Part shown: positions 2,547 to 17,613 of the stretch, piece by piece | Layout of the letters: each line of letters begins with the position of its first letter | Position numbering within the stretch: position 1 is the first letter of the stretch | Source: Gammaproteobacteria bacterium | GTDB lineage: Bacteria; Pseudomonadota; Gammaproteobacteria; Steroidobacterales; Steroidobacteraceae | Length of the DNA: 64,000 nucleotides | Assembly (NCBI GenBank): GCA_027324195.1 | Contig: DAHVTM010000013.1 | Location: 6,950 to 70,949 of the forward strand | Reading direction: 5' to 3' | Position numbers and translations under genes: made by a program | The notes under the pieces: generated by a model | Told to the model about the DNA's origin: nothing | The model's database searches: none | What the model saw: only the letters and a program-made list of their open reading frames with translations

Positions 2547-2801
2547 ATGGCCCGAGTGCCTGCCAGTGAGTTTCAGCGCGAGTTTGGCCGCCTGCGAAGC
2601 GTGGCCCATCGAGAAGCAGTGATCGTCACCAGTCACGGTCGCGACGATGTGGTGCTGCTTTCCGCGGAAGAGTATCAGCGCTTGCGTAGCCTGGATCGAC
2701 GCGCCATGCACGTTTCCGAGCTAACCGACCATGAACTGGCTGGCCTTGATCGCGTGGAGATTCCCGCGGAGGCCGCCCGATACAACCACGAGATGACCTG
2801 A
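2547..2801 (+). CDS. Phd/YefM-family type II antitoxin
   Basis: 84 aa; MARVPASEFQREFGRLRSVAHREAVIVTSHGRDDVVLLSAEEYQRLRSL matches the Phd/YefM N-terminal fold signature. It lies 10 bp upstream of the toxin-like ORF. Confidence 0.75.
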   Translation: MARVPASEFQREFGRLRSVAHREAVIVTSHGRDDVVLLSAEEYQRLRSLDRRAMHVSELTDHELAGLDRVEIPAEAARYNHEMT

Positions 2802-2811
2802 CCGCCAGGGG

Positions 2812-3240
2812 ATGGCGCACCCTCCTCCACAACCTGGCCAGGTCATTCGGTATGCCTACCTCTGGTGGAATGAAGCGCGGACCGGTCGCGAGGAAGGCGC
2901 TAAAGATCGGCCTTGCGGCGTCGTCCTCACACAAATCGCCGAATCCGGTCACACCATTGTCTATGTGTTGCCCATTACGCATACACCGCCGATGAAGGAG
3001 GAAGACGGCATAGAAATCCCGCAGGCCACTAAGCGCCGCCTGGGTCTCGATGCCGAGCGGTCGTGGATCATCACAACCGAGTTCAATCGGTTCACTTGGC
3101 CGGGACCTGACGTCCGGCCCACGGCATCAGGCGACTACCTGTACGGCGTCTTGCCTGAAAAGTTGATGCGCTTGGTGCTGGATCAGGTGAAAAAGCGTGC
3201 CCGCGACAAATCGCTGAGGGCCGTACCTAGAACGGAGTGA
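2812..3240 (+). CDS. PemK/MazF-like (SH3-barrel) putative toxin
   Basis: 142 aa. The pattern PGQVIRYAYLW...GAKDRPCGVVL...VYVLPITHTPP...SWIITTEFN resembles the G-x-[IV]...K-x-RP-x-[LV]V...P-[IL]-T layout of PemK/MazF growth inhibitors. It is paired with a Phd antitoxin. Confidence 0.5.
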   Translation: MAHPPPQPGQVIRYAYLWWNEARTGREEGAKDRPCGVVLTQIAESGHTIVYVLPITHTPPMKEEDGIEIPQATKRRLGLDAERSWIITTEFNRFTWPGPDVRPTASGDYLYGVLPEKLMRLVLDQVKKRARDKSLRAVPRTE

Positions 3241-3259: not shown

Positions 3260-4735
3260 GTGCACATGCCCAATACGAAAAAGAACACGGCGCCAAGTCC
3301 TGCCGACACGAATAACGCAGCCAGCAATGATGCGGGACGCCGCATCGTGTTCATCAGCCATTCGAATCCCGAAGACAATGATTTTACAACGTGGCTAGCC
3401 GCGCGTTTGGCGTCTGCCGGCTACGAGGTTTGGTCCGATATCACCAAGCTGATTGGAGGCGAGGTCTTCTGGAAGGACATCGAAGAGGCAATCCGGCGTC
3501 ACACGCTCAAGTTTGTGTCGGTTCTATCGGTTAGTGCGCCCACCAAGCGCGGATTTATGAAAGAGCTGAGCGTGGCGGACGCCATCGAGGGCAAAGGCAA
3601 GCTGGGTGATTTCATCATTCCTGTACGGATCGATAGCATTTCGTTCTCAGACATTCCAATTCAGATTCATAACAAGAACGTAATCGACTTTACGGTCGGC
3701 TGGAACGAGGGACTCGCTCGCCTACTCAAGAAGTTCGAACAAGACAAAGTCCCTCAGTCCGGCACCAATCTAGCTCCATCGTTATCCGATTGGGCCAAGG
3801 GCCACCTGGATTTGGAGCGAGGCGTACGATCCGAAGATCAGACGCTCATGTCGAATTGGCTGCCAATTGAATCTTTGCCCTCGACGGTCCGAATCTCATC
3901 CTTCACGCTCACGCCCTCGAACATAGAACCTCTGCAGGGCCAATGGCCCGCGCGCCTTGTCGGTAGCCGGATCGTTAGCTTCGCCCGCGCCCAGGATTTT
4001 GATTTGCCCGGTGAGTTTGCGAATTTGCGCAACGAGATCGAGATCGACACGGAGACGTTCTTGCGCTCAGGGACCTCGACGCTGCCGCAGCTCACATACA
4101 ACGATCGCAGTAACGTCTTAACCGACTTGCTCGGACAGGCGTGGCGAAGTTACGCCAAGGGACGAGGGCTGATCGCTTATTCGCTCGCCAACGGCAATCA
4201 GTGCTGGTTCTTACCGGCGCCCACCGCTACGCCAGAGCGGGTGGCCTATACCGACGCTCTGGGTAAGTCAGGCAAGCGCGTCCTTGTCGGAAGGAGCGAG
4301 AAACTCGGAGTGTACTGGCACCTCGCGGTGGAGTTTCAACCCTCGGTTGGCAAGCAGCACAGATTTACGGCGGTGACTCATGTTGTCTTCACCTCAGACG
4401 GTCAGACCGTGCTTCCCAGCGCGAGCCGGCAACACCGCCTGAGACGCACTTTTTGTAAACAATGGTGGCAAGACCGGTGGCGCGATCTCATCTCGGCGTA
4501 CCTCGCGAAATTGAGTGAACAAGAGGTAACTATCAACGTACCCATCGCACCGGATCGCACGGTCACCGTCTCTACATCACCACTGACATTCATCAGCCCC
4601 GTCAACGCATACTTCGAGGAGGCGGCGGCGTCGCTCGATGAACTACATGATGACGCGGATCTTCTGTACGACCCCGATGCGGATGACGATCTGCAAGACG
4701 ATGACGACCACGGGGACGCAGAATGCGCGAGTTGA
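3260..4735 (+). CDS. TIR-APAZ protein (SPARTA effector subunit)
   Basis: 491 aa (GTG 3260 or ATG 3266). The N-terminal TIR is RRIVFISHSNPEDNDFTTWLAARLASAGYEVWSD...FVSVLS...FMKELSVA, with candidate catalytic Glu102 at 3563-3565. A ~300-aa APAZ-like region follows, then a strongly acidic C-terminal tail (DELHDDADLLYDPDADDDLQDDDDHGDAE). It overlaps the pAgo start by 13 nt. Confidence 0.8.
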   Translation: MHMPNTKKNTAPSPADTNNAASNDAGRRIVFISHSNPEDNDFTTWLAARLASAGYEVWSDITKLIGGEVFWKDIEEAIRRHTLKFVSVLSVSAPTKRGFMKELSVADAIEGKGKLGDFIIPVRIDSISFSDIPIQIHNKNVIDFTVGWNEGLARLLKKFEQDKVPQSGTNLAPSLSDWAKGHLDLERGVRSEDQTLMSNWLPIESLPSTVRISSFTLTPSNIEPLQGQWPARLVGSRIVSFARAQDFDLPGEFANLRNEIEIDTETFLRSGTSTLPQLTYNDRSNVLTDLLGQAWRSYAKGRGLIAYSLANGNQCWFLPAPTATPERVAYTDALGKSGKRVLVGRSEKLGVYWHLAVEFQPSVGKQHRFTAVTHVVFTSDGQTVLPSASRQHRLRRTFCKQWWQDRWRDLISAYLAKLSEQEVTINVPIAPDRTVTVSTSPLTFISPVNAYFEEAAASLDELHDDADLLYDPDADDDLQDDDDHGDAECAS

Positions 4736-6249
4736 GACTGGACTACATAGCTGAGCCGAAACTCGTCTTCGGCAGCGGACAGCAGCTCGAATCGCCGAAA
4801 GATGGACTGTTCCTCTTCGGTCCAGAAAAGGTAATCAAGGAGCACGCCACGCTGCGCATTGGCGTCATCGGAACGAGGGCAGGAATCACTTTTTTCAATG
4901 AGTGGGTGTCTCGGGTAAAGGGTTTCGTGCAAGGAAAGGAGTCTTCCTCCGCGCAGCATCGATCTTTTCTAGGATTCAGCGCAGTCTACGGAGTGCGTTT
5001 GCCCGATAGCGCTGTTTGCGAGCTGCTCGTTAGTGATGAGGAGATCGACAAGGCGCTCATGGTCTCAGATCGGCACATTGCGATATTTAGAACAGTCGAT
5101 GTGTTCTCTGACCCGATCAAGCGTTATATCAACGAAGAAGAAGCGGTCGTCGATGTGTGGTTCGTTGTCATTCCTGAACGGATCTTCCTGTATGGCCGAC
5201 CGAAATCGATTGTACCCGTCGCCCTGCGCGTGGACTCCAACACGCACATGGACAAGAAACTAGCCAGAGAACTCATCGCCGAGCCTTCTCTATTCACTGA
5301 GGACAATGAAGCGGCCGAGCCGTACCTGTACGAAGTCAACTTTCACAACCAACTAAAGGCTCGCTTGCTGGAGAGCCCGCATCGCGCCGTCGTGCAAATC
5401 GTGCGCGAAACCGTTGTGGCGCCGGGCGCATTCCTGAAAAGCAATGGGAAGCCTTTGCGCGCCATTCAAGACCCCGCAACGGTAGCCTGGAACCTCTGCA
5501 CGACGGCCTATTTTAAGTCCGGTAGGCGACCTTGGCGCCTTGCCCGTGTCAGGGACAAAGTCTGCTATGTTGGACTGGTCTTCAAGCGTTTGCTCAATGA
5601 TGCCGAAGGCAGCGCCTGCTGCGGGGCGCAGATGTTTCTGGATTCGGGAGACGGGCTTGTTTTCAAAGGGGCAGTAGGTCCCTGGCGATCTGCAAACAAA
5701 GGCGAATATCACATTTCCCGAGAAGGTGCGCGCACTCTACTGGCCATGGTGGTCGAAGCATACAAGATCAAAGAAGGCTGCTACCCCTCGGAGCTATTCC
5801 TACATGGGCAGACCGCGTTCAACGACGACGAGTGGAGCGGCTTTACGGATGCGGTATCACCAGGGACCAATCTCGTGGGTGTTCGTATTCGATCTAGCCT
5901 CTCCATGAAGCTGTTCCGACCCGGCACCCATCCGATTCTTCGTGGCTCTGCGCTGCGGCTCTCGAGTCGCGCCGGATTTCTCTGGACGCGAGGCTTTATC
6001 CCATATCTGGGCACATATCCTGGTCGCGAAACCCCAAATCCCTTAAGAATCGATCTGCTGCGTGGAGAGGCCGACCTCCTGACGGTGATGGCGGACGTGA
6101 TGGCTTTGACGAAGCTCAACTTCAATGCGTGCATATACGGTGACGGACTTCCTGTCACTCTCCGCTTCGCAAGCGCGGTCGGCGAGATATTGACAGCAGG
6201 ACCGACGCCGGAAACTCAGCCGCCTCTTCCCTTCAAACATTATATTTAG
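4723..6249 (+). CDS. Short prokaryotic Argonaute (MID-PIWI only, apparently catalytically inactive), SPARTA sensor subunit
   Basis: 508 aa, too short for N/PAZ domains. The MID 5'-phosphate pocket HK-type motif is FHNQLK (H208/K212). PIWI-like blocks are ATVAWNLCTTAYFKSGRRPW, CYVGLVFK (no Asp at the first catalytic position), CCGAQMFLDSGDGLVFKG, LHGQTAF and KLNFNAC. The C-terminus is ...PFKHYI. Confidence 0.8.
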   Translation: MRELRLDYIAEPKLVFGSGQQLESPKDGLFLFGPEKVIKEHATLRIGVIGTRAGITFFNEWVSRVKGFVQGKESSSAQHRSFLGFSAVYGVRLPDSAVCELLVSDEEIDKALMVSDRHIAIFRTVDVFSDPIKRYINEEEAVVDVWFVVIPERIFLYGRPKSIVPVALRVDSNTHMDKKLARELIAEPSLFTEDNEAAEPYLYEVNFHNQLKARLLESPHRAVVQIVRETVVAPGAFLKSNGKPLRAIQDPATVAWNLCTTAYFKSGRRPWRLARVRDKVCYVGLVFKRLLNDAEGSACCGAQMFLDSGDGLVFKGAVGPWRSANKGEYHISREGARTLLAMVVEAYKIKEGCYPSELFLHGQTAFNDDEWSGFTDAVSPGTNLVGVRIRSSLSMKLFRPGTHPILRGSALRLSSRAGFLWTRGFIPYLGTYPGRETPNPLRIDLLRGEADLLTVMADVMALTKLNFNACIYGDGLPVTLRFASAVGEILTAGPTPETQPPLPFKHYI

Positions 6250-6280
6250 TGGATGTCGGGCCCAGCCACGCTACCACCCC

Positions 6281-7258
6281 TCACTCACGTTCAAGGCTCA
6301 GGCGCTCAAATTTCATCTTCGGGTAGAACTGGCGCGTCACGGCTTCCACGCTCTTGGCGATCCACAAGGGACAGAGCGGCGAGGTGCTCACCGAGGCGTT
6401 GCATCCCGTCAAATCCAGGCTCGCTCCGGCCGAATAGTAGCCCGGGTTCTCCGCGGTGAGTCTCACCGCGAAGCGAAACTCCTGGTCAAGGCGGAAGAAG
6501 CGATTCTTGCGGAATGCAGGATGTTGGACCGTGACGGTAGGCCCAGCCTCGTCGTCTACTTCGATTTCGAATTCAGGTGTTTCGTAGTCGACAAAGCCAT
6601 ACAGAAACTCGAAATTCTCCAGTCCTCGTTCCTTATCCATCAAATTCCGCTTGACCCAACTCGTGTCTTGTAATTGCTTGAGCAGTGCCGGCCCATCACA
6701 CGATATACAAACCCCTCCCTTGTGACCGCCGTAGGATCGCCACATCAGATCTGTCAGGGCTTCTCCCGCGTGCCAGCACGATACAAACCATCTCTCAGGT
6801 ACCTCGCCGGAAAACTCGTCGCCCAACTCCTCCGCCAGCAGATCTTCAGCCTTCTCAACCAACACCGAGTGGTCCACGTCCGCAGGGAGGGAGAACTCGG
6901 GCTCATTACACGAGTCGACTAGTGCCTGCTTGATGTCCTCACTCAAGGCATCGGGGAACGCGCAGTCGTAGGGGTCCTCGTATTCGGTGGCACGCGGGAT
7001 ATAGAGCTGTCGCGTGGTCAGAATCGACAGGTACTGCTCCAGCGGCATGAACCGAACCAACCGCGCTGGCGGCGCAGAGCTGGAGAACGGGCGCTCGATT
7101 TTGTAGTCCAGCCAATGTCCACTCGTATCGATGTACTCGCGGATATCGCCGCCACGGTCAACATCCTCCACGTCGTCCATATCATCCATTTCGTCGCTCA
7201 CCATCTGGTCCTCTCGCCATTCTGCTATCTTGAATTTGGTTGGCACGCAACGCGGCAC
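6281..7258 (-). CDS. DUF2971-like protein
   Basis: 325 aa (GTG 7258; alternative ATG 7204). Blocks LYIPRATEYEDPYDC, FVSCWHAGEALTDLMWRSYGGHKGGVCISCD and FRKNRFFRLDQEFRF match the DUF2971 layout as I recall it (LY.s....fNDp.E / mW..Y......GvcI / K...w..E.E.R). It has an acidic N-terminal stretch. It lies 13 bp downstream of the HEPN gene. Confidence 0.55.
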   Translation of the reverse strand: MPRCVPTKFKIAEWREDQMVSDEMDDMDDVEDVDRGGDIREYIDTSGHWLDYKIERPFSSSAPPARLVRFMPLEQYLSILTTRQLYIPRATEYEDPYDCAFPDALSEDIKQALVDSCNEPEFSLPADVDHSVLVEKAEDLLAEELGDEFSGEVPERWFVSCWHAGEALTDLMWRSYGGHKGGVCISCDGPALLKQLQDTSWVKRNLMDKERGLENFEFLYGFVDYETPEFEIEVDDEAGPTVTVQHPAFRKNRFFRLDQEFRFAVRLTAENPGYYSAGASLDLTGCNASVSTSPLCPLWIAKSVEAVTRQFYPKMKFERLSLERE

Positions 7259-7271
7259 GGACGCCGATGGT

Positions 7272-8813
7272 TTACCTGTCGTCCTTACGAGGCTCGGCCT
7301 GCGCCTTGGCGGCAGCCCGCGCCGCAGCGACGGCGGCCTCGGTCGCAGGATCCTTCAAGGCCTCTGGAGGCAGGAGGCCCACATCGACGAAGGAGGATTT
7401 TATCGAACGCGACCGCAATCCCCGACCGGCGATTGCGCGCAGACGCTCCTCATCGATACCGATCGTCCGAAGCAGAAGGAGGTGATAGAGATTTGATAGC
7501 GCCGCGCTCTTCTTGTGGAGATCTTCCAGCTCATTGTCGTAGTTGCCCTCGTGGCGCCGACCTCCGTAGTGGGAGATTTCGTTCCGTTTGTCGGCACACG
7601 CTTTCGCGAACGCACGCAACTTGGTTTGGTCTAGATCAAGCGGCAACGGCTCCAGGATCTCAAAAATGCGTTGCTCAAGCGAGGGCTCGCCGGCGTGTTG
7701 GAGCTGTCGTTTCAACCATTGCTTGTCTTTCCCCTTTTCCATCCGACCCAGAATTCGGTGGATTTTTTCTTGTAGCTTATCCGAGCCTCGCGCCGGTTCT
7801 GCGCGGCGGCGATGCAACGACTCGAGCCCCCACATGAGCATGATGAATCGGTGCTCTTCATAGAGCGAGACGCTGCGCCGTGTACCCAGGTACAGGTACA
7901 CGCCGGGACCCCACTCCTCCCGGCGACGCCGCCAAGTGGAAAAGAGTTCGCCGAATTTGTCTTGCGCGTGGGGAAAGTTAACCCACCATTTATGAGGCCC
8001 AGGAGGTTCTTTCTCGCGGCTCGGATGCCTCGCGAAGTAGAGCTGAAAGGTCTGAGCCTGGCCTCCCTTCCCACAGGTTAATGTCGGCCAATCCAAGTTG
8101 TAGTCGGATCCGGTCAACAAAATGAACAGATCAGCGAAGAGCACAAACTGTGCCTGCATTTCAGCCAGCGAAAGCGCGCGCTTTGGAGTCAACTCAATTT
8201 CAGCATATTCCGTCAATGTCAGGCTTGGGCCGCGGTGCTTACCGAGGTAAGGGCCCATCACGCCGAAGACGATTTGCAGTTCTCCATCCTCAAGCGGGTA
8301 GACGAGTCTATCCGGTACGCTATAGCCCGCAGTAATCGTTGATTCCGTCCGTTCGGTAGTTATACCGCGCAACCACAGCCACTCCTCGAACCCTTTCAGG
8401 TCCACGGTCAGCCGTTGGAATTCCAGGGGTTGCGGCAAGTCACGAAAGGGGCCCTGACCCAATAGACACTGGAGTGCCGAATATCGCTCAAAGGAGATGC
8501 CATTAGACTTGAACTGCCCGCCGGCGCGATTCACTCCCGACAGGCGCACTGTCTTGTTGCTGCCCTTCAAGATCCCATGGATGCCCTTGCCCTCCGGCAG
8601 GGGCGCGGAGTTTCCAAAGGCCGACAGAGGTCCAAGTTCACTGGGAAGCACTCCCTCAAGTTCGAGACGAGCATGGCCATCCTCATCTATGCTCAGTTTC
8701 CCCACGACAGCGGTCTCGGGTGCAAAGTGACCCGAAGGAACGGGAGTATCGCCCCACCAGAAGTAGCCCGTTTCCTCGACCAACCTTGGGTTTACGCGGT
8801 CGTCCTTGGCCAT
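7272..8813 (-). CDS. ApeA-like HEPN-domain protein (putative RNase defence effector)
   Basis: 513 aa from ATG 8813 (the track start 8828 is TTG). The C-terminal helical domain carries an Rx4H HEPN motif, ADKRNEISHYGG (R415..H420 in track numbering; nt 7569-7586), preceded by EHRFIMLMWGLESLH. The large N-terminal beta-rich domain (GYFWWGD...GKLSIDEDGHARLELEGVL) is arranged like the ApeA N-terminal domain. Confidence 0.6.
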   Translation of the reverse strand: MAKDDRVNPRLVEETGYFWWGDTPVPSGHFAPETAVVGKLSIDEDGHARLELEGVLPSELGPLSAFGNSAPLPEGKGIHGILKGSNKTVRLSGVNRAGGQFKSNGISFERYSALQCLLGQGPFRDLPQPLEFQRLTVDLKGFEEWLWLRGITTERTESTITAGYSVPDRLVYPLEDGELQIVFGVMGPYLGKHRGPSLTLTEYAEIELTPKRALSLAEMQAQFVLFADLFILLTGSDYNLDWPTLTCGKGGQAQTFQLYFARHPSREKEPPGPHKWWVNFPHAQDKFGELFSTWRRRREEWGPGVYLYLGTRRSVSLYEEHRFIMLMWGLESLHRRRAEPARGSDKLQEKIHRILGRMEKGKDKQWLKRQLQHAGEPSLEQRIFEILEPLPLDLDQTKLRAFAKACADKRNEISHYGGRRHEGNYDNELEDLHKKSAALSNLYHLLLLRTIGIDEERLRAIAGRGLRSRSIKSSFVDVGLLPPEALKDPATEAAVAAARAAAKAQAEPRKDDR

Positions 8814-8861
8814 CTCACAGGCCCGCAAGCGATTCGGCGGGATTCAATGGGCTGCCGCGGC

Positions 8862-9110
8862 TCACGGAATTTCGCGGACATTGAATCGGCGCCGCGCCTC
8901 TTCGAGCAGCGGCCGCAGGTGTTGGTTGACGAGTACGCTATCGCTGCGGCCGTAATTGATGATGAGGTCGCGCGACCAATTGCAGCCATCTTCGTCCGGC
9001 TCTAGCATTTCGTATTGCACCGTCGCCCGTGCCTCCTCGCATCCCTTGTGCTTATGAAGCTCCTGGTTGAGCCAATCGCTTATTTCCGCGCGCGTCTTGA
9101 ATTGCCGCAT
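8862..9110 (-). CDS. Small hypothetical protein (82 aa), first gene of the HEPN/DUF2971 cassette
   Basis: ATG 9110. Its stop lies 48 bp upstream of the HEPN ATG on the same strand. I recognise no family. Confidence 0.4.
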   Translation of the reverse strand: MRQFKTRAEISDWLNQELHKHKGCEEARATVQYEMLEPDEDGCNWSRDLIINYGRSDSVLVNQHLRPLLEEARRRFNVREIP

Positions 9111-9178
9111 GAAGTTTCCGCTTCGAAGCCTTTACCCTCGCGGAGGCCTGATCCCCACACTGCTACTATACTCCCTCG

Positions 9179-9769
9179 ATGGCAATCAGTCTTATGCGGC
9201 GGATGCTCTACATCCCCATCCTTCATACGGATACGAACCTGATCAATTCCCGTCAGAGGCTTCCGGCCGTGAATACTCTGGAGAAGTGGTGCGCCGATGG
9301 GGTCATCCTGGTTAACATGGCTGGGACCGCGCGCGCAGAAGCGCTCGCCGGAGGCGACACCAGACGGACACAGAAGGCCAATCGGCAAATTTTCACGATG
9401 ACGGCACCCGCCCCTACGGACACTCCTCGGTTCAAAGCTATCGAGTCGCTGCTATTCCCAGGCGGTGTGAGGGATGAGAATCAGCGGAACGATGTGCGGA
9501 TCGTATCCGACGCGATTCACTATGCGGCGATCCTGGTTACAAACGACGGAGGGTCGCGATCCCAGCCTGGCGGCATACTGGGAAATCGAGACGCACTGAC
9601 ACATCGATTCGGTGTCCGAATCTTATCCGCCGACGAGGCGGTCGATTTCGTGCGATCAAAGATAGGCAAACGAGACGACTTAAATCGCCAGGTTGTGCGG
9701 GAGTTCGGTGGCACACTGCCTTATTGGACGGCAACGGACTATGCGGAAGTGAACCCAGCGAGGAACTGA
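9179..9769 (+). CDS. PIN-like domain protein (putative nuclease), orphan
   Basis: 196 aa. The N-terminal ILHTDTNLIN and the late NDVRIVSDAIHYAAILVTNDGG resemble the first and last acidic motifs of PIN-fold proteins. No adjacent antitoxin-sized partner lies on the same strand. Confidence 0.35.
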   Translation: MAISLMRRMLYIPILHTDTNLINSRQRLPAVNTLEKWCADGVILVNMAGTARAEALAGGDTRRTQKANRQIFTMTAPAPTDTPRFKAIESLLFPGGVRDENQRNDVRIVSDAIHYAAILVTNDGGSRSQPGGILGNRDALTHRFGVRILSADEAVDFVRSKIGKRDDLNRQVVREFGGTLPYWTATDYAEVNPARN

Positions 9770-9839: not shown

Positions 9840-10835
9840 CTACCGATGAATTGGTTCAGTGCATTGCCGCGCGTTGCGTGCTCCAGTTGTCAATGCGTTC
9901 GCGATCAGCTCACGTTCCGTGAGAGGCGGGGGAGCTCGACTAACAAACTGTTGGAGTTGCGCGGCCAGTTCGACTTGACCTTGTGCCGTGAGAATTTCGC
10001 TGGCCGCATGCCCTCCTCGTTCCACCTGCCTTCGTGTCTCGGTCAGTTTGCTCTTGCCCGGCTCACGACGGGGTCCACCCTTTAGCAGCTCCGCGGCAAC
10101 TGACTCAGTACGGGCTCGAAGAAAAGTTGATTTACCTCGGAGCCCTGCACGATAAATGCCATCCTTCTTCGCCTGACGGGTCTCTCCCCTTACCGCCCGT
10201 TCCGTCGCATTAGCCTCGACCCCGAGAGCTCGCAGGTTCTGTGCAAATTCTTGCCGCCAGTGGCGCAGTGTCTGTTTGCGGATGTGCAGGCGTACACCCT
10301 GCTCACTGACCGCCTTCAACACCATATGCACATGCGGGTGGGGCTCGTCGGTATGGAGAACCATGGCATAGCGGTGTTTGAGTCCGAACTCCTCCCTAGC
10401 GAGGTTCTTCACGGCGGCCAACACCTTGTCCGGCGGCGTTCCGGCTGGCATAGAGAAGAGCAGTTTATGTACGAGCTTCTTGGAGCCGCCTTGCCGGGCG
10501 CTAAGGTCCGATCGATTCCGACGTGCCTCCAGCTCGAGATCCCAATCCTCTATGAGTTCCTTAGTAGCGTTTTGACCCGATAGCTGTCTGCCGTCATCCG
10601 TCTCGACTTCCCGCTCACCATCGTCTCGGTCACGCAGGTAGTCGATATGCCGCCCCACGGCCTTCAGATCCTGACCGCCGCGGCTTAAGACCTTCACCAT
10701 GACTTCCGGGACCCGTCGGACCGTGCGGGAGATCTGCGCGATCTCCCCCGGCGACAGACGATCGCGACGACCCGGACCAAGGCGAGCGTAGCTGGCCAAG
10801 TCAAATAGCGGCTCGCCATATTGTGGGCTAGCCAT
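9840..10835 (-). CDS. Relaxase/mobilization nuclease (VirD2/MOBP-like)
   Basis: 331 aa. The histidine triad is VLHTDEPHPHVHMV. The N-terminal candidate catalytic Tyr is in GRHIDYLRDR. It overlaps the mobC stop by 8 nt. Confidence 0.75.
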   Translation of the reverse strand: MASPQYGEPLFDLASYARLGPGRRDRLSPGEIAQISRTVRRVPEVMVKVLSRGGQDLKAVGRHIDYLRDRDDGEREVETDDGRQLSGQNATKELIEDWDLELEARRNRSDLSARQGGSKKLVHKLLFSMPAGTPPDKVLAAVKNLAREEFGLKHRYAMVLHTDEPHPHVHMVLKAVSEQGVRLHIRKQTLRHWRQEFAQNLRALGVEANATERAVRGETRQAKKDGIYRAGLRGKSTFLRARTESVAAELLKGGPRREPGKSKLTETRRQVERGGHAASEILTAQGQVELAAQLQQFVSRAPPPLTERELIANALTTGARNARQCTEPIHR

Positions 10836-11367
10836 AGCCTTGCTCCCAGGACTTCAGATTCGCGGCGAGTAGGTTCCTTACATGGTCTCGAAGGCCCTCG
10901 CAGACCTTCAGGATTGCTCGTAGCTCATCGCGATTGGGCCCTGTCGCGCGTTCGCCGCGATTGGCGGCGTGGGCGATCTGGTTGACGTTACGGCCGATAG
11001 CTCCGAGTTCCGCCAGCGTTCTCTTGAGCGCCAGAAGCTCCTCCTTAGGCAGCGGGGCCAGGGTCCTTAGATGCGCTCGTGTCAACACTGACACATATGT
11101 CGCCGCTGGCATTCCGCGAGCGGCTGCCCGCTCGCGCAGGAGCGACTGATCAACCGGATGTAAGCGCACGGTTAGCCGTGAGTCCCGTGCAGGTCGACCC
11201 CCTCCGGGCAGTGGGGCCGTTTGACCGCCACTGGCGGTCTGCAACATGAGATCGACGAGCCGCTTCAGCAACGCGGAATCCGACAAACCCTGATGGCGCG
11301 CGACAGCCGCGAAACGCTCTTTCGTGTCGCGAGTAACCCAAGTCTTGAGTTGTGTGCCGTCGCTCAT
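10828..11367 (-). CDS. mobC: MobC-family relaxosome accessory protein
   Basis: 179 aa from ATG 11367 (the track start 11388 is TTG). RHH-like N-terminus KTWVTRDTKERFAAVARHQGLSDSALLKRLV. C-terminal MobC block LKRTLAELGAIGRNVNQIAHAANRG. Confidence 0.7.
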   Translation of the reverse strand: MSDGTQLKTWVTRDTKERFAAVARHQGLSDSALLKRLVDLMLQTASGGQTAPLPGGGRPARDSRLTVRLHPVDQSLLRERAAARGMPAATYVSVLTRAHLRTLAPLPKEELLALKRTLAELGAIGRNVNQIAHAANRGERATGPNRDELRAILKVCEGLRDHVRNLLAANLKSWEQGYG

Positions 11368-11404
11368 CGTGAGCGACAGTTGTACCAAAGAGCCGCCGCC
11401 AGGC

Positions 11405-11436
11405 TATCCTGCATTTCACCGAAAATTCGGCGAAAC
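11405..11436 (+). promoter_or_regulatory. Candidate oriT core: TATCCTG/C nic-like motif abutting palindrome copy 2 (ATTTCACCGAAAATTCGGCGAAAC)
   Basis: TATCCTGC at 11405-11412 matches the MOBP/VirD2 nick consensus YATCCTG|Y (RP4 oriT, T-DNA borders). The palindrome at 11413-11436 follows immediately. The location is just upstream of mobC-relaxase. Confidence 0.35.
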
Positions 11437-11915
11437 TGCGTTGTGCCCTGCGGTTATCGTAAGCCAGCTACGACCATTCTCGGCAACAGCACCGGGGTCT
11501 CACTCGCCATAGCGCCCGCCATGGCCTGCCTGCCCAGGTGGCGATCCGGACGTGGAAAGACGGAGGTCATGTGCGAGGTTGCTCAGCGCGGGCATCAATT
11601 CCGGGCTCTTTCCGTGGCGCTCAGGTCCGGTAGCACCTTTACCGCCGAGGACACGCTGTTCGTGCGGGACAGTCGGTCTAGCAAGTGGTGGATGAGTTCG
11701 CGAAGCGGCCCTATTACGCTGCCACGGCCCTGGCGGAGTTCAGGTCCGCTACCCAGGATTACCGCTGAGCATCAACTGGATAGGCAGCTCCAGTGACCGG
11801 CACCGCACGCTCCGCGGTGCCTCCGATATCCCCGAGTCGAACATCCCATGCGACCACATCGCCCGTCCAAGGTCATTTGGAAGCCCCAGGTGCCGTGGAT
11901 AGCAGCGAACCGCCA

Positions 11916-12143
11916 TCAGCCGTCCAGCGCGCCCTGGAACAGCTCCGCCGGGTCGGCGCCGAGCGCCTTCGCAATAGCAATGAATTCCGCCACATCCACA
12001 CGCCGTTCCAGAGATTCGATCCGCTGGATCCAGTTCGGCGGCTGCTGAAGCCTTTCCGAGAGCTGCCGCTGGGAAAGCCCCGCCCTTTCTCGCGCCTTGC
12101 GAACCGCGGCGGCGACTGCCCTTTGGCGGGCGGAATACTTCAT
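11916..12143 (-). CDS. XRE-family HTH transcriptional regulator
   Basis: 75 aa; RERAGLSQRQLSERLQQPPNWIQRIESLERRVDVAEFIAIAKALG is a Cro/C1-type HTH. Confidence 0.75.
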   Translation of the reverse strand: MKYSARQRAVAAAVRKARERAGLSQRQLSERLQQPPNWIQRIESLERRVDVAEFIAIAKALGADPAELFQGALDG

Positions 12144-12180
12144 AGCACCCTCGACGACCGAACGAGGTGCTCCTAATACC

Positions 12181-12249
12181 GTATCAACCCTATTGATACG
12201 AAATCCGTATCAGGGTATGGTCCTCTGCACTGATACTATTTTCGTATCA
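12181..12249. promoter_or_regulatory. Operator array: five GTATCA/TGATAC hexamers in the divergent XRE intergenic region
   Basis: GTATCAA-cccta-TTGATAC (12181-12199), GTATCA (12207-12212), TGATAC-tattttc-GTATCA (12231-12249). The region is AT-rich and lies between the XRE gene (-) and ORF 12264 (+). Confidence 0.55.
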
Positions 12250-12263
12250 CTGGGACGACGGTA

Positions 12264-12590
12264 ATGAGTACCGGCATCAAAGGCCAGATGACGCTGTCGA
12301 CGCCGAAGTCTCGGCGGCGAACTGCGCGGTCGCATCGCCTGCAAGAGGCGTACACCAAAGGTTCTGCGGGAACGGCTCATACGGCTCTATTGCGTCTTCT
12401 CGGCGAGCTGTCTGATGCGATTTCTCTGGTGACTGTCGTGCACCACTCGTTGGCAAGCCGCGATGCGTCCGGCGTCGGGGACGATGAAGTCGCTCTTCGC
12501 TACGCGCTCAATTTGCTTCGCGCTGCGTACACCGGTCTCGATTCAGCCTGCGACGACTCGAAACTCCGAAGCTCCTCTTCGATGCGATGA
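12264..12590 (+). CDS. Hypothetical protein (108 aa), translationally coupled to the ECF sigma gene
   Basis: ATG 12264. Its stop overlaps the sigma ATG (ATGA at 12587-12590). I recognise no family. Confidence 0.4.
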   Translation: MSTGIKGQMTLSTPKSRRRTARSHRLQEAYTKGSAGTAHTALLRLLGELSDAISLVTVVHHSLASRDASGVGDDEVALRYALNLLRAAYTGLDSACDDSKLRSSSSMR

Positions 12591-13219
12591 ACAGCACATC
12601 GGTCACAGAGCACTTTATGAGCTCAAACGGAGAACCCGGCCCCATGAGTGCACGCACAAGCAATCGGCGCGACGAAATTCCTGCACCAATCAGGCTCAAG
12701 GAGAAGCCGTCGATTTCACCAAACGGCAGCACCCGCTCTGGAGCGCTAGCGAACGTAGCACGTCGACAGCACGGACCCCTTCTGCGCTTTCTCGCGAGGC
12801 GCGCCGGTTCAATGAACGAAGCAGAAGACATCATCCAAGAAGCCTACGTTCGAATCCTCTCGGTTGAGCGTCGCGAGACAATCCAATCGCTGGACCGGTA
12901 CCTCTGGCGAAGTGCGATGAACGTCGCCGCAGATCGGGCACGCAGTCGACAAACGCGGCGCCGGCTTGCAGAGATTCATTCGGCCTTCCAGGAACAGTTC
13001 GCCCCATCTGCCGAAATCACGGCGGAAGCGCAAGAGGATCTGGCGCTCGTCTGCCGGACCGTGCAGCAAATGCCGCCAAAGTGCTACGAGGCATTCATGC
13101 TTCGCATCGTGCACGGCATGCCATTCGAGGATGTGGGACGCGAGATGAAAATAAGTTCGCGCATGGCCAAAATATACGTCTCGAGGACGCTCCGGTTTCT
13201 CCAGGAAAAGTTACATTAG
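12587..13219 (+). CDS. ECF (sigma-70 family, group 4) RNA polymerase sigma factor
   Basis: Region 2 reads AEDIIQEAYVRIL...LDRYLWRSAMNVAADRAR. Region 4 HTH reads MPPKCYEAFMLRIVHGMPFEDVGREMKISSRMAKIYVSRTLRFL. A ~60-aa N-terminal extension makes the start uncertain. Confidence 0.75.
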   Translation: MNSTSVTEHFMSSNGEPGPMSARTSNRRDEIPAPIRLKEKPSISPNGSTRSGALANVARRQHGPLLRFLARRAGSMNEAEDIIQEAYVRILSVERRETIQSLDRYLWRSAMNVAADRARSRQTRRRLAEIHSAFQEQFAPSAEITAEAQEDLALVCRTVQQMPPKCYEAFMLRIVHGMPFEDVGREMKISSRMAKIYVSRTLRFLQEKLH

Positions 13220-13823
13220 CCGTCAATTCGACGACCAAAGGCATACGTCCATGGCGGACGCCGCGAGAGTAGTCATATCTCACCCATTTGTTACAGGCAA
13301 TGGTCGGTACTCGATTCCGCTGCGGTAGACGGCACGACGGATGATTGAGATTGACCAAGACTGCAAGATGAACATTACGCGGTCATGTCCCGACTGCATA
13401 TCCGCGCTTCCACTGTGTGACACCTGGTTTCAATTGCGATTGAATCGACAAATGTACAGGGCGTAGCCACGGATAGGGATCGCGGCAGACTTATCTTCGA
13501 TCACGCATTGGCCACAGCTGACGGCCGGCTGGTTACCGAGAGTCAGCATGCACGGAAGATGAGCGCTGGCTGTCCGGATTGCCCCTTGTCGCCGTGAATG
13601 TCCTGTTTGACCTCAAACGGGCGGCCAGAAGGATCCAGTCCCGGCGCGACTGCGGAAGCACCTAATCCGGTGCTCGCGAGAATACAGATGCTCATGGAAC
13701 CCTCTAGATCCCACGGACTCGTGGTCACGGACGGCTCACCTATTCTTACAGCCATACTCGTGCTATCGTTCCTGCGAGCTGATAGCGTCAGCTCGTCGCG
13801 CCCAATCGGAAAACAATAACTCT

Positions 13824-14354
13824 GTGACCACGATCACCGTTCGCTATAAGACATCGGACTTTCTGCGCTTAGCGTTGCGCACGGCACCGCGCAGTGCCGC
13901 TCTAAAGTGGGCGATGCTTGGGGTTGCAGCAGTGGTTTTCGCAACGAATTGCTATCAAAGCAAAGCGCCCTGGGAACCGGCTACGTTGATCTCGAACCTC
14001 ATCACAACAGCCTTGTTTTCGATTGTGTACTTGCCGATTATGGCGGGACTGGCTGTACTAATTTGGGCACTTAGGAATCGCAGGAGCGCCTTCGGAACAG
14101 AACCCCAATGCTATTCGATTACTGACGGCGGCTTGACGCGACAATCGCCGTCATCGGAGACGCTGATTAAATGGAGCGCAATGCGGTCCTTGCGCAAGAG
14201 CAGAAAGTCTATCTATGTGGAGACTTATCCATTGTGTTATGTAGTTCTGCCGCGCCGCTCATTTGCAAGCGCTGAAGAATACGAATCTGCCTGGAATAGC
14301 TTACAGGAGCATGTACTTTCCAGCCGCTCCTTGAGCGGTCAGGAGCGGTCGTGA
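13824..14354 (+). CDS. YcxB-like membrane protein
   Basis: 176 aa, GTG start. It has two central TM helices followed by CYSITDGGL...IKWSAMRSL...YVVLPRRSFASAEEYESAW, the YcxB-type C-terminal pattern. Confidence 0.45.
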   Translation: MTTITVRYKTSDFLRLALRTAPRSAALKWAMLGVAAVVFATNCYQSKAPWEPATLISNLITTALFSIVYLPIMAGLAVLIWALRNRRSAFGTEPQCYSITDGGLTRQSPSSETLIKWSAMRSLRKSRKSIYVETYPLCYVVLPRRSFASAEEYESAWNSLQEHVLSSRSLSGQERS

Positions 14355-15277
14355 ATCACGCACCGATTGCCTGGCCGATTGGCGTCGTTGCCGGATTGCT
14401 TGCCGTCGCATTCACCAACCCCGTATTGGCTGCGACAGATACGGCGGCAGCTCATTGCTTTCCCGTAATCCATGGGCGAGTCCGCTATACGTCGAGTCTT
14501 GTGCCGGGCTGGTCCCGCGATGCAAAACAGTCGCACACACTCGGAATCGCCGCGCTCTTTCATCGCACAGGCGATGAGCGCCGCAATCAGTCGATGATCA
14601 CCTTGGATGCCGCACAGCACTTTCCATGGCTCAACGTTTCGACGTTGGTTTCGCAGAATGTTGCCGGAGTTCGCAAGACACACCCAGATGCGCGAATTGA
14701 GGCAATGTCATTACCGCCTGGATTATCGGCGCGGGGCGTCATTGTGTCGTATCGCGGACTCTGGCAGACGCTGGTGGCTCGTCAACTGGGCAAGATCATC
14801 GTGCTGACGACGCTCCAGTGCGGGAACTCCGCTCAGTGTGCACCTCTGGTCCGGTATTTTTTGAGTTTTCTGTCGAGCATGAAGTACACATCACCGAGTC
14901 CAGATGCTCGGACTGCGGAAGCGAAACAGAACGCCGTTCATTCCGGAATTGTCTACGGCCAGCACTGGAAAATATTGTTTTCGAAGATGCCGTGGATGCC
15001 AGACACTACCCTTGCGAATCGGCTTGGCGTCAACGAGATCTTTTACCCGTCGGACTGGGACCCCCACGCGCTCGCTCCGTTCATTAGCCTCGCGTACGAT
15101 AAGAAGACCAGCAGATGGAATCTCAGGCGTGCGATTGCGTGGGACGTGGCCCGCTCACGGAAGCATGGAGACGTCGTGACTTCGGTGCCTCCGCTGAGCT
15201 GGCATGGAGGACACGCTGCGTTGAGGATATTCAGCTACAAGGGCGGGTGGGACGAGGTCGTCTACTCCGATGGCTGA
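14351..15277 (+). CDS. Secreted hypothetical protein (signal peptide)
   Basis: 308 aa. The GTG start overlaps the upstream stop (GTGA). The N-terminal segment IAWPIGVVAGLLAVAFTNPVLAA is signal-peptide-like. I recognise no family. Confidence 0.45.
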   Translation: MNHAPIAWPIGVVAGLLAVAFTNPVLAATDTAAAHCFPVIHGRVRYTSSLVPGWSRDAKQSHTLGIAALFHRTGDERRNQSMITLDAAQHFPWLNVSTLVSQNVAGVRKTHPDARIEAMSLPPGLSARGVIVSYRGLWQTLVARQLGKIIVLTTLQCGNSAQCAPLVRYFLSFLSSMKYTSPSPDARTAEAKQNAVHSGIVYGQHWKILFSKMPWMPDTTLANRLGVNEIFYPSDWDPHALAPFISLAYDKKTSRWNLRRAIAWDVARSRKHGDVVTSVPPLSWHGGHAALRIFSYKGGWDEVVYSDG

Positions 15278-15488
15278 AAAGTGATTTTCTACGTTACCCT
15301 GCACTGCAATGATGCCAGTCAGTGCAAGGCATATCAGCCGCTCTTGAAGCCCTTCGTGCAGAGCCTGAGCTTTGTGCACGCGTCAGTCACGATCGAGAGC
15401 CCCAGCCAACGGTAGGATCGTCCGAGACTCTGTTAGGCCATTGCGCTCGCGGGAGAGCGCAAGTGAGCAGCGACTCCCCGGCAGCTCG

Positions 15489-15797
15489 TTAGCGCGCTAT
15501 GACGCCAAGAAGGGCGTGGTACGCAGACAGGAGCAATAGAACGCCAATTGAGAAGCCCAGCATACTCCAGAAGGGAAGCTGGGACAGGGCGCCTGAGAAT
15601 CTGAGGATCATCGCCGCCGCGATGCCGAGAATTCCGACGGCGGTTAGAACAAAGCTCACAACCGACTCGAGTGCGAGCAGGACGACCAGAATCGGCATGC
15701 GGACGAACAGCCAGAGGACTCGCAGGACACTCGCTGCACACCTTGGACGAGACGCTCGCGCGCGGTAATTCTCGAGGGGCAAGATCGCGGATTTCAT
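15489..15797 (-). CDS. Small membrane protein (about 3 TM)
   Basis: 102 aa from ATG 15797 (MKSAILPLENY...). It has three hydrophobic segments. The track ORF 15489..15911 is over-extended. Confidence 0.4.
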   Translation of the reverse strand: MKSAILPLENYRARASRPRCAASVLRVLWLFVRMPILVVLLALESVVSFVLTAVGILGIAAAMILRFSGALSQLPFWSMLGFSIGVLLLLSAYHALLGVIAR

Positions 15798-16146: not shown

Positions 16147-16500
16147 ATGGCAGCGGTGTCGCCCTGCGTTGCAATTCCCCGCTTCATCCGGCTTCGCGAC
16201 GCGCCAGCGTATCTCGGGATGGACAAGAACCGCTTCAATCGCGATGTCCGTGTCCGTCTGGTCGCCATCCCGATCGGCACGCAGGGCATTGCCTTCGATC
16301 GCCTTGACCTCGATGCATGGGCCGACGACCATAAGCGGCGCAACGGGCGTCCCGCGGCTCAATCCGAAAGGAGGACGTCATGGGACTGCAAAAGCCGCCC
16401 GGCCTCACCCTGCGAGGCGAGGTCTGGCACATCGACAAAGACATCTACGGAACTCGCATTTGCGAAAGCACTGGCACAGGCGATCTCAGGGAGGCGGTAG
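16147..16500 (+). CDS. Excisionase-like / AlpA-type small DNA-binding protein
   Basis: From ATG 16147: ...RFIRLRDAPAYLGMDKNRFNRDVRVRLVAIPIGTQGIAFDRLDLDAWADDHKRRNGRP. This type of ORF commonly precedes this integrase family. The 3' end overlaps the int start, so its end is uncertain. Confidence 0.5.
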   Translation: MAAVSPCVAIPRFIRLRDAPAYLGMDKNRFNRDVRVRLVAIPIGTQGIAFDRLDLDAWADDHKRRNGRPAAQSERRTSWDCKSRPASPCEARSGTSTKTSTELAFAKALAQAISGRR

Positions 16501-17594
16501 CGATTCTGTCGCGACGGCTCGAGGAGGTTCGGGCCAGCAGGTTCTTCGGAGTTCGCAAGACAAGGACGTTCCGGGAAGCGGCGACCCGGTATCTGGAGGA
16601 ACACCCGCACAAACGAAGTCTCTAGCGGGATGCCCGGTCACTGGCCGCGTTCGATCCGTACATCGGCGCGATGACGCTCCAGCAGGTGCACTTCGGCAGC
16701 CTGCAGACATACATCCGAGACAAGTTGAAGGCGGGGAAGAGTCCAGGAACGGTCAACCGCGACCTCGCAGTCGTGCGGCGGATCCTGAACTTGTGTGCGC
16801 GCTTGTGGCGAGATGAGGAGGACCGGCCCTGGTTGGACACGGCGCCCTTGATACAGATGCAACGCCATCCGGACAAACGCACGCCTTATCCTCTTTCGAT
16901 GGAGGAGCAGCGGCTATTGTTCTCGGAGTTGACGGCGCATCTGTCCCGAATGGCGCTATTCAAGGTCAATACCGGCACGCGGGAGCACGAAGTCTGTGGG
17001 TTGCGATGGAGCTGGGAGGTCCGGGTTCCGGAACTCGACACGTCCGTCTTCATCATCCCGCGGGATCACGTGAAGAACGGACTCGAGCGGTTCGTGGTCT
17101 TGAACCGCATCGCCCAATCGGTGATCGAGGGCTGTCGCGGCGAGCACGAGGAATTCGTGTTCACGACGAAGGAGCGCGACGGCTCGCGGCATCCACAGTG
17201 CCGGATGAACAACTCAGGCTGGAAGGCGGCACGTAGGCGCGCGGCGGTGCGATACCCCCGTGAGTTGGGGTTACCGTGTCCGGCTGGATTTCGGTCCATC
17301 CGGGTGCATGACCTCAAGCACACGTTCGGGTATCGGCTGCGAGCGGCCGGCGTGGCGTTCGAGGATCGTCAGAGTTTGCTCGGCCACAAGGCGGCGCACA
17401 TCACGACCCACTACTCCGCAGCGGACATCAGCAACCTGATTTCCTGCGCAGAGCGCGTCTGTGATCTCGCCTCCCGCAAATCTCCCGCACTGTCGATCGT
17501 GCGATCCGCGGGGCGATTGCAAGTGGCTGAAAATGCTGGTGGAAAGGGAGGGACTCGAACCCTCGACCCCGGCATTATGAGTGCCGTGCTCTAA
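16380..17594 (+). pseudogene. int: Tyrosine recombinase/integrase interrupted by an in-frame TAG (16623-16625)
   Basis: ORFs 16380..16625 and 16671..17594 are in the same frame and read ...EEHPHKRSL*RDARSLAAFDPYIGAMTLQQVH.... The catalytic region has NTGTREHEV (R), HDLKHTFGYRLRAAGV (H-x-x-R) and LLGHK..HITTHY (H, Y). The 3' end runs 58 nt into tRNA-Met. Confidence 0.7.
17473..17489 (+). repeat. CCCGCAAATCTCCCGCA motif, candidate arm-type site (attR arm, inside int 3' end)
   Basis: See 688-704. Confidence 0.35.
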
Positions 17595-17613
17595 CCAGCT
17601 GAGCTACCTTTCC
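17537..17613 (-). tRNA. tRNA-Met (anticodon CAT), elongator-like
   Basis: Minus strand: GGAAAGG-TA-GCTC-AGCTGGTTA-GAGC-A-CGGCA-CTCATAA-TGCCG-GGGTC-GAGGG-TTCGAGT-CCCTC-CCTTTCC-A-CCA, a 77-nt clean cloverleaf. It lacks initiator features (no C1:A72 mismatch, no GGG/CCC anticodon stem). I cannot exclude Ile2 (lysidine). Confidence 0.9.

Follow-up and report, generated by a model that had tools for sequence, protein, structure and literature searches.

ApeA (Gao et al. 2020; Ec1ApeA and Ec2ApeA) consists of a single protein that has its own sensor pocket, and its E. coli homologues form a ring-shaped oligomer of HEPN dimers with a ligand-binding pocket and cleave tRNA anticodon loops or phage RNA (bioRxiv 10.64898/2026.01.26.701840, 10.64898/2026.03.20.713152). 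Aristaios is a lactococcal single-gene DUF2971 antiphage system (PMC11381338). DUF2971 itself has been described as DarT-like, and sequence analysis puts it beside DarT (HYE ART clade; PMC12522546).

Within the window, i.e., the whole stretch of 64,000 nucleotides that was analysed, an earlier note had singled out three closely packed minus-strand genes, encoding an 82-residue protein (here termed small82), an ApeA-like HEPN protein and a DUF2971-like protein (Table 1), and had proposed that they form one composite defence system. Our main reading, to which we assign a probability of about 80%, is that they are separate modules which a mobile defence island carries next to one another. The trio is an ordinary juxtaposition of genes whose kinds are known; of modest interest, as a by-product, is a module of small82 and a divergent gene, orf196, with variable downstream cargo.

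Table 1. Features of the island, by position in the window
Feature	Position	Strand	Basis or remark
SPARTA operon	3260..6249	+	PADLOC, Pfam TIR_2
TIR-APAZ gene of SPARTA	3260-4735	+	PADLOC Aga_TIR-PNTD1-PNTD2 9.9e-131, Pfam TIR_2
Short pAgo of SPARTA	4723-6249	+	PADLOC pAgo_I 6.2e-197
DUF2971-family protein, 307 aa, acidic N-terminus	6281..7204	-	Pfam DUF2971, PDC-S31
ApeA-family protein, 513 aa	7272..8813	-	Pfam, PADLOC PDC-S58
HEPN motif RNEISH, R410-H415 (Rx4H)	7569..7586	-	Read from sequence
small82, 82-aa alpha/beta protein, ATG start, invariant GCNWS motif	8862..9110	-	43 homologues
orf196, 196 aa, divergent from small82	9179..9769	+	PIN-like conserved acidic residues
Mobilisation genes	9840..11388	-	Pfam
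MobA/VirD2-type relaxase	9840-10835	-	Pfam Relaxase 6.7e-13
NikA/MobC	10828-11388	-	Pfam NikA-like 8.8e-10, MobC 7.1e-6
Island end: integrase and tRNA-Met	16380..17613		G+C step located here
Tyrosine integrase	16380-17594	+	Overlaps tRNA-Met
tRNA-Met	17537-17613	-	Island end

The three genes and their island

The three ORFs had been placed at 9110-8862, 8813-7272 and 7258-6281, and all are present as conserved genes, the 82-aa, ApeA-like and DUF2971-like proteins having 43, 128 and 54 database homologues, respectively. Of the two gaps given between them, the one of 48 bp stands and the one of 13 bp does not: the most probable start of the third gene is the ATG at 7204, so that the gap between the ApeA and DUF2971 genes becomes 67 bp. 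This ATG is preceded by GAGAGGA, and translation from it yields a protein of 307 aa that matches database protein P0121 from end to end with 100% identity; the homologues are ~299 aa long. The length of the ApeA-family protein is counted from its ATG, and the reading frame reaches back to a TTG at 8828.

The setting in a mobile defence island was borne out by low G+C, a relaxase, an integrase and tRNA-Met. The G+C content is ~57% from 1 to 16 kb, vs ~67% in the remaining window, and an Rfam scan of the island found nothing except the tRNA-Met. In this window the integrase carries an in-frame stop at codon 82, and the order of the mobilisation genes is the same in four identical copies of the island (L071-L074). 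Positions 6281-9110 are part of the cargo region of a mobilisable genomic island integrated at tRNA-Met. The neighbouring SPARTA operon, recognised by PADLOC, converges on the DUF2971 gene with a gap of 31 bp from the stop codon of the short pAgo, as the earlier note had described, and is a further independent cargo module.

Two putative single-gene defence modules

All of the Pfam matches that had been expected (HEPN_Apea, ApeA_NTD1 and DUF2971) were obtained, and PADLOC, run on the locus, returned PDC-S58 for the ApeA gene and PDC-S31 for the DUF2971 gene, together with SPARTA. The 513-aa protein matched ApeA_NTD1 (PF18862) at 5.6e-21 (75.7 bits against a cut-off of 25.5, profile positions 2-271 of 271) and HEPN_Apea (PF18739) at 9.1e-15 (55.7 bits against a cut-off of 24.4), in agreement with the ApeA-like architecture and RNEISH motif that had been read from the letters alone; the HEPN_Apea domain is present in all ApeA homologues among the matches listed (128 homologues). 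In an alignment of 38 homologues at 30-80% identity, R410, N411 and H415 (numbered from the ATG at 8813) are invariant. The best PADLOC model was PDC-S58, a single-gene candidate (1.6e-34), followed by Cas13-ApeA (7.6e-22), with nothing further at E<=0.1; a search of PDB chains with the ApeA profile gave no match.

The protein resembles ApeA in its combination of ApeA_NTD1 and HEPN_Apea, its conserved Rx4H motif and its length of ~500 aa, and also in being encoded by a single gene without a conserved partner that is found in defence islands and mobile elements. It differs from the tested E. coli proteins in that it is only distantly related to them and has a candidate, PDC-S58, as its best PADLOC model. 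The gene is best regarded as a stand-alone ApeA-family defence gene of the PDC-S58 type. As in the characterised ApeA proteins, its HEPN dimers would assemble into rings and the protein would itself sense infection, through a ligand pocket lying between its N-terminal and HEPN domains, after which the Rx4H site (R410/H415) would cut tRNA anticodon loops or phage RNA.

The 307-aa protein, which had been described as DUF2971-like with an acidic N-terminus, was confirmed as such by matches to Pfam DUF2971 (PF11185; 4.8e-5) and to PDC-S31 models of PADLOC (4e-8 and 1.3e-7). The Pfam match is partial (profile positions 1-60 of 89) and, at 25.1 bits against a cut-off of 22, just 3 bits above threshold. 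An AF2 model of moderate quality (pLDDT 65) was compared with the PDB using Foldseek, and DarT occupied ranks 1-4, 6 and 7 of the resulting list (8baq, 7omv, 7omx, 7yk3 and 7omw), the best DarT match being 8baq (E 7.9e-4, probability 0.99). Three residues, Y158, D240 and E242, are invariant or nearly so in the subfamily and are possible counterparts of the catalytic motif II Tyr and motif III ExE of ADP-ribosyltransferases; a sequence profile searched against the PDB gave nothing significant. The model predicts a DarT-like ADP-ribosyltransferase fold, although identity to DarT is 7-11% and the TM-scores are 0.27-0.45; ADP-ribosylation of DNA is a putative activity. Unlike DarTG, the gene has neither a DarG-like macrodomain antitoxin nor any other conserved neighbour.

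It resembles Aristaios in being a single gene of mobile elements and defence islands whose product, of ~300 aa, contains a DUF2971 domain and is predicted to adopt an ADP-ribosyltransferase fold. However, the matches to Pfam and PDC-S31 are weak and partial (25 bits; 4e-8), and the subfamily to which the 307-aa protein belongs carries an acidic tail at its N-terminus and long inserts modelled with low confidence. We regard the gene as a candidate stand-alone defence gene of the PDC-S31 type, like Aristaios; its product would form a second, unrelated single-gene module and is predicted to be an abortive-infection toxin like Aristaios. The domain identities, the lack of co-occurrence and the linkage and fusion of small82 with orf196 come from the analysis itself; the biochemical activities suggested here for all proteins of the locus are drawn from the literature or from analogy.

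Gene neighbourhoods of the ApeA and DUF2971 homologues

The composite system was envisaged with small82 as a regulator or immunity protein, the HEPN domain of ApeA as the effector and the DUF2971 protein as a sensor or second effector, i.e., a sensor-effector or toxin-immunity arrangement, and the earlier note had suggested that the neighbourhoods of the genes be compared across genomes, a lack of co-occurrence elsewhere counting against the idea. The genes do lie on the same strand, separated by 48 and 67 bp, with no internal terminator detected, and the arrangement is kept in five near-identical copies of the island from different samples. However, the trio was found only in these copies of the same tRNA-Met island (L051 and L071-L074), which are 91-100% identical, and is absent from all non-identical relatives examined. 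That is the outcome named beforehand as refuting the composite system, and the idea is therefore not borne out.

No DUF2971 partner and no recurrent neighbour was present at 59 distinct loci encoding ApeA homologues of 28-80% identity (58 plus L076; L075 and L076 carry one protein, P0003). At the 50 of these from genomes (28-74% identity), neither the DUF2971 subfamily nor small82 was found within 10 kb by tblastn, nor by HMM searches at E<=10, and an iterated profile built from three DUF2971 subfamilies also gave no match over the same distance. When the neighbours of ApeA were clustered all against all, the largest family covered 4 of the 50 loci, and Pfam searches of 79 same-strand ORFs lying <500 bp from ApeA returned no family more than twice. 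The DUF2971 gene is already missing beside homologues at 80%, 75% and 74% identity, and the closest of these stands alone in a defence island. Both partners were missing from five ApeA homologues on viral contigs, and searches of viral contigs with small82 and the DUF2971 protein gave no match; among plasmids, no record held both ApeA and this DUF2971 subfamily. As to small82, it was absent beside ApeA in 58 of the 59 non-identical loci, the exception being L077, and beside all DUF2971 homologues outside this island.

The same picture emerged from the side of the DUF2971 protein. Eleven other contexts of homologues at 67-83% identity, including those at 83%, 82% and 79%, lacked both ApeA and small82; clustering of the neighbours at nine metagenome loci revealed none that was shared, and three further contexts had different neighbours in each. 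These homologues adjoin other defence candidates (PDC-S11, a TIR effector, PDC-M63A and a type I R-M system). Further arguments against a composite system are that ApeA, and likewise a DUF2971 protein, has been shown by experiment to act without a partner, that small82 is conserved and fused with another gene (see below), and that in one copy of the island (L051) the ApeA gene carries two frameshifting indels while its neighbours are intact. Taken together, these observations leave the composite system barely credible.

A narrower proposal is that ApeA and the DUF2971 gene form a recent, lineage-specific pair whose synergy has been selected in this island only, for example an RNase and an ADP-ribosyltransferase that back each other up, or one that guards the other. 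Every copy of the island has the two genes next to each other in one orientation, and an unrelated ApeA and DUF2971 pair lies 3.1 kb apart on a Methylocella plasmid. The members of that pair, however, are on opposite strands with an IS5 element and another gene between them, no other ApeA locus has a detectable DUF2971 gene within 10 kb, and defence genes cluster non-specifically in islands, so that we consider such synergy highly improbable.

The reading that we prefer, of separate modules, leaves room for shared transcription. A promoter and terminator scan of positions 6100-9400 gave counts no better than those in shuffled sequence, and no recognisable promoter or terminator was seen inside the three-gene run. 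The three genes are on a common strand, with 48 and 67 bp between them, and cargo was inserted directly behind small82, so that they may share a transcript in this island and may interact functionally in this particular element; any co-transcription would be linkage by juxtaposition and not a conserved system. Tight spacing of defence-like genes in a mobile island should not be taken as evidence for one multi-gene system; comparing neighbourhoods answers such a question quickly. What the locus adds is a soil-proteobacterial clade of ApeA and a DUF2971 subfamily, candidate single-gene defences that travel with SPARTA on a mobilisable island.

small82 and its divergent neighbour orf196

The 82-aa ORF had been described as a small ORF of no recognisable family preceding ApeA; it proved instead to be the partner of the divergent gene orf196, and in relatives it is a domain of one fused protein. 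Linkage of the two was seen in 7 of 9 contexts (the window, L077, L078, L079, L086-89, L099 and a Robbsia plasmid), and on the Robbsia plasmid (NZ_CP139169) their homologues lie in tandem, with 34% and 50% identity. In 10 of 150 family representatives listed, a small82 domain is fused N-terminally to the orf196 domain; in P0221, for example, residues 4-84 are 34% identical to small82 and residues 94-279 are 56% identical to orf196. On the strength of these linkages and fusions, small82 and orf196 constitute a separate module, and small82 is not an accessory of ApeA.

Neither protein had a meaningful match in Pfam, NCBIfam, PHROGs or PADLOC. The orf196 family comprises 397 cluster representatives at E<=1e-3 (clusters at 50% identity), with D18, E54, D105 and T121-x-D123 as conserved residues, whose acidic members form a PIN-like pattern. 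One relative matched Pfam PIN at 3.3e-4, and the window protein and 45 of the 46 relatives tested had no Pfam match; a search of the PDB with the family profile returned nothing significant, the PIN domain of 1o4w being a weak match (E 1.2). For small82, AF2 gave a confident fold (pLDDT 91), and a Foldseek search of the PDB with this model found no fold match and no HTH or DNA-binding fold. A fold like a ring-building motif was considered for small82 and rejected, the matches being non-significant (E>0.2). In our main reading, the protein is the split-off N-terminal domain of a two-domain family whose C-terminal, PIN-like domain is encoded here by orf196, and it does not serve ApeA or the DUF2971 protein as regulator or immunity protein.

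It has also been considered that small82, often together with a tightly coupled protein of 157-162 aa with an HExxH motif, is a conserved leader or regulatory unit whose promoter drives interchangeable defence cargo downstream; ApeA and the DUF2971 gene would then be cargo under regulation in a hotspot and not wholly autonomous. A TATAAT-like element is conserved upstream of small82, homology between loci ends exactly at its stop codon, and the defence-like genes downstream vary (ApeA, two different DUF2971/PDC-S31 proteins, an LmuA-like serine protease and a PDC-M58A-like REase); at several loci there is an overlap of 4 bp between the 157-aa gene and the stop codon of small82. Against this, small82 has nothing co-directional downstream of it in L099 and L097 and lies downstream of the cargo in L079, orf196 accompanies it more constantly than any other gene and is fused to it in relatives, it has no match to an HTH or other DNA-binding fold, and the window lacks the 157-aa gene. 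We therefore think a leader function unlikely. The gene beside small82 on the Robbsia plasmid, taken at one point for the 157-aa HExxH protein, is the orf196 homologue, and a CapH/CapP-like regulation by small82 and the HExxH protein was unsupported, there being no HTH fold in the one and no gene for the other in the window.

In P2 and P4 prophage hotspots and in integrative elements, variable defence cargo is flanked by conserved genes. Judged from ~9 contexts, the present locus is similar in that orf196 and small82 form a framework beside which unrelated defence genes replace one another; it differs from hotspots of the P2/P4 type in that the framework pair is uncharacterised, has PIN-like motifs and could be a defence or toxin module in its own right. 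We suggest tentatively, as a possibility that falls short of even odds, that small82 and orf196 are an undescribed defence-island module, split at this locus and a single two-domain protein elsewhere, in which a PIN-like nuclease domain is combined with interchangeable N-terminal domains, the site behind small82 being a promoter-driven cargo hotspot. The cargo named for this hotspot consists of ApeA, DUF2971/PDC-S31 proteins, an LmuA-like protease and restriction-like enzymes. The widespread PIN-like family of 397 clusters, from which small82 is sometimes split off with variable defence cargo behind it, is a possible marker for mining new defence genes.

The sequence contexts of small82 may point to a less strict functional link with the defence cargo downstream. 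Apart from this island, there is a second context, L077, in which an ApeA homologue (75% identity) follows small82, and in L080-85 small82 is followed by a different DUF2971 protein.

Three genes in a mobilisable island

All three minus-strand reading frames described in the earlier note, encoding an 82-aa protein (small82), a 513-aa ApeA-family protein and a DUF2971 protein, are present, and because each has many database homologues (43, 128 and 54, respectively) they represent genes rather than chance reading frames. The DUF2971 gene most likely starts at the ATG at 7204, which has GAGAGGA in front of it; the 307 aa encoded from this codon match a database protein (P0121) at 100% identity from end to end, and its relatives have lengths of about 299 aa. 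With the start moved to this position, the gap between the ApeA and DUF2971 genes becomes 67 bp rather than 13 bp.

The window opens with 16-17 kb that can be described as a tRNA-integrated mobilisable island, on the basis of a step in G+C content (about 57%, against about 67% elsewhere), an integrase gene that abuts a tRNA-Met gene at the end of this stretch, and the presence of relaxase and NikA/MobC genes in the low-G+C stretch. The setting of the trio in such an island had been recognized correctly, as had the 31-bp convergent spacing between the DUF2971 gene and the SPARTA operon (TIR-APAZ plus short pAgo), the identity of which is confirmed by PADLOC matches of 9.9e-131 and 6.2e-197. In an otherwise identical copy of the island (L071), the integrase gene is intact and encodes 404 aa. 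A Phd plus PemK/MazF-like pair (2547-3240) immediately precedes the SPARTA TIR-APAZ gene.

Features of the island (window coordinates)
Feature	Position	Strand	Remarks
Phd-family antitoxin gene	2547-2801		TIGR01552, 1.2e-10
142-aa gene	2812-3240		follows Phd gene; weak PemK/MazF-like match
DUF2971 gene	6281-7204	-	
ApeA-family gene	7272-8813	-	
RNEISH motif of ApeA-family gene	7569-7586	-	R410-H415, numbered from ATG 8813
Junction behind small82	8814-8861		
small82 gene	8862-9110	-	
orf196 gene (196 aa)	9179-9769	+	divergent from small82
Further island genes	11221-15800		ECF-type sigma-70 gene, HTH_31 regulator, YcxB-domain gene and several genes without family match; read via annotated identical copies L071 and L074
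Tyrosine integrase gene	16380-17594		in-frame stop at codon 82 in the window
tRNA-Met gene	17537-17613	-	overlapped by 3' end of integrase gene; likely attachment site

Distribution of the three genes

The proposal that the three genes form one composite defence system was not supported, since they were not found together outside copies of this island. We sampled 50 genomic loci with ApeA homologues of 28-74% identity, taking up to 10 kb of flank for each. Relatives of DUF2971 or small82 were found near ApeA in none of these loci, whether by tblastn, with a subfamily HMM (E≤10), or with an iterated profile made from three DUF2971 subfamilies. Clustering of the neighbours within 3 kb of ApeA in the same 50 loci gave no family present in more than four, and a Pfam scan of the 79 same-strand ORFs within 500 bp of ApeA gave no family more than twice. 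An ApeA homologue with 80% identity (P0003) stands alone amid other defence genes (Mrr_cat, DUF4238), and the five homologues on viral contigs were all without both partners. Results from the DUF2971 side were similar: homologues with 67-83% identity occurred in 11 distinct contexts (L052-L059, L090, L091-93, L094-95), none of which contained ApeA or small82. These DUF2971 loci had no neighbour in common, and the genes beside them were other defence candidates or integrases, i.e., PDC-S11, a TIR effector, PDC-M63A and type I restriction-modification.

The trio was found only in L071-L074 and L051, all of them copies of this island, and absence of co-occurrence elsewhere is what the earlier note had named as counting against its proposal. 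In L071-L074 the ApeA protein is 100% identical and the island gene order is unchanged from the integrase to the Phd/PemK pair, while L051 is an island copy with 91-95% identity, SPARTA included. The ApeA gene of L051 (5721-7263; JGI Ga0105240_10004390) carries +2 and -1 indels about 95 nt apart, which point either to a pseudogene or to faulty assembly; small82, DUF2971 and SPARTA are intact there despite the broken ApeA gene.

The only other place where ApeA and any DUF2971 protein lie close together is plasmid p2 of Methylocella tundrae (NZ_CP139087, 106596-118041), which carries an ApeA homologue of 43% identity and, on the opposite strand at a distance of 3.1 kb, a DUF2971 gene of another subfamily. 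An IS5 transposase gene and a gene for a HEPN/Toprim-associated protein separate the two. This arrangement is what clustering in defence islands would produce. Two known kinds of single-gene defence protein each have a new member at the locus in the window, where they adjoin SPARTA.

small82, orf196 and the junction behind small82

The most constant neighbour of small82 is the divergent gene orf196, and the pair was seen again in L077, L078, L079, L086-89 and L099. Judged from sequence, small82 is the N-terminal domain of a two-domain protein, split off as a gene of its own, and its partner is orf196. This reading rests on the recurrent pairing, on a Robbsia plasmid (NZ_CP139169) in which a small82 homologue (34% identity) is followed in tandem by an orf196 homologue (50%), and on fusion proteins. 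An exhaustive HMMER search placed the orf196 family in 397 clusters at 50% identity; among the best 150 of the 397 representatives, ten carried a fused small82-like N-terminal domain (HMM E 7e-17 to 4e-7). In one such fusion (P0221), residues 4-84 align to small82 (34% identity, 3e-16) and residues 94-279 to orf196 (56% identity, 4e-71). Other family members have unrelated N-terminal regions.

The AF2 model of small82 is confident (pLDDT 91), and neither family libraries nor a fold search gave a significant match to the protein. The orf196 family matched no Pfam, NCBIfam or PADLOC model. A PIN-like residue set is kept in orf196 (D18, E54, D105 and T121-x-D123), with weak profile support (one orf196 relative at 3.3e-4 to Pfam PIN; PDB 1o4w at E 1.2).

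In an alignment of three loci, a TATAAT-like element upstream of small82 was conserved, and homology between loci stopped at the small82 stop codon. What follows small82 differs: in the window ApeA and DUF2971, in L077 a 162-aa HExxH protein and ApeA, in L078 an LmuA-like serine protease, in L080-85 a 157-aa protein and a different DUF2971/PDC-S31 protein of 483 aa, in L086-89 a 157-aa protein followed by proteins of 327 and 177 aa, and in L099 nothing co-directional. In several loci the gene for the 157-162-aa HExxH protein, which is not in the window, overlaps the small82 stop codon by 4 bp. The abrupt end of homology, together with the differing defence-like genes beyond it, suggests that the site behind small82 is a hotspot for cargo insertion. 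In L079, a restriction-like gene lies between orf196 and small82. Within the window, transcription of ApeA and DUF2971 may start at the small82 promoter; a scan of the trio, itself uninformative, found no internal promoter or terminator signal. The small82/orf196 pair is an uncharacterised module with variable defence cargo at its downstream junction.

Predicted activities of the ApeA-family and DUF2971 proteins

The ApeA-like assignment of the middle protein was borne out by matches to Pfam ApeA_NTD1 (5.6e-21) and HEPN_Apea (9.1e-15), its best PADLOC model being the single-gene candidate PDC-S58 (1.6e-34). R410, N411 and H415 were invariant in an alignment of 38 homologues with 30-80% identity. 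E. coli ApeA homologues act as single proteins, their HEPN dimers assembling into decameric or dodecameric rings, and an infection-derived ligand (5'-phosphorylated deoxydinucleotides for Ec2ApeA) binds in a pocket that lies between the N-terminal domain and the HEPN domain, after which the HEPN site cleaves tRNA anticodon loops (bioRxiv 10.64898/2026.01.26.701840). The pocket residues of Ec2ApeA are E74, S40, R148, Y159, H487, R490 and Q494. With RNA phages, ApeA cleaves the phage genome instead of tRNA (bioRxiv 10.64898/2026.03.20.713152). Because the window protein has both domains and the catalytic motif in common with E. coli ApeA, it would be expected to act in the same manner.

The third protein also proved to be DUF2971-like as claimed, although the Pfam match was barely over threshold (25.1 versus 22 bits); it matched the PADLOC single-gene candidate PDC-S31 at 4e-8. 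Its AF2 model was of moderate quality (pLDDT 65), and with this model DarT occupied ranks 1-4, 6 and 7 of the Foldseek PDB list (best 8baq, E 7.9e-4), in agreement with a published analysis that sets DUF2971 next to DarT in the ART superfamily (PMC12522546). The single gene for Aristaios, a DUF2971 protein of 316 aa, is enough to protect lactococci, and the phenotype is abortive (PMC11381338). The window protein may be regarded as a putative DarT-like ADP-ribosylating toxin, and its acidic N-terminal tail, more speculatively, as a candidate auto-inhibitory element. A further case of a DUF2971 protein in defence-type company was seen in L066 (3755-4765): the homologue there is distant, with 27% identity, and the gene beside it gives a weak, TIR-like match to the SPARTA TIR-APAZ protein.
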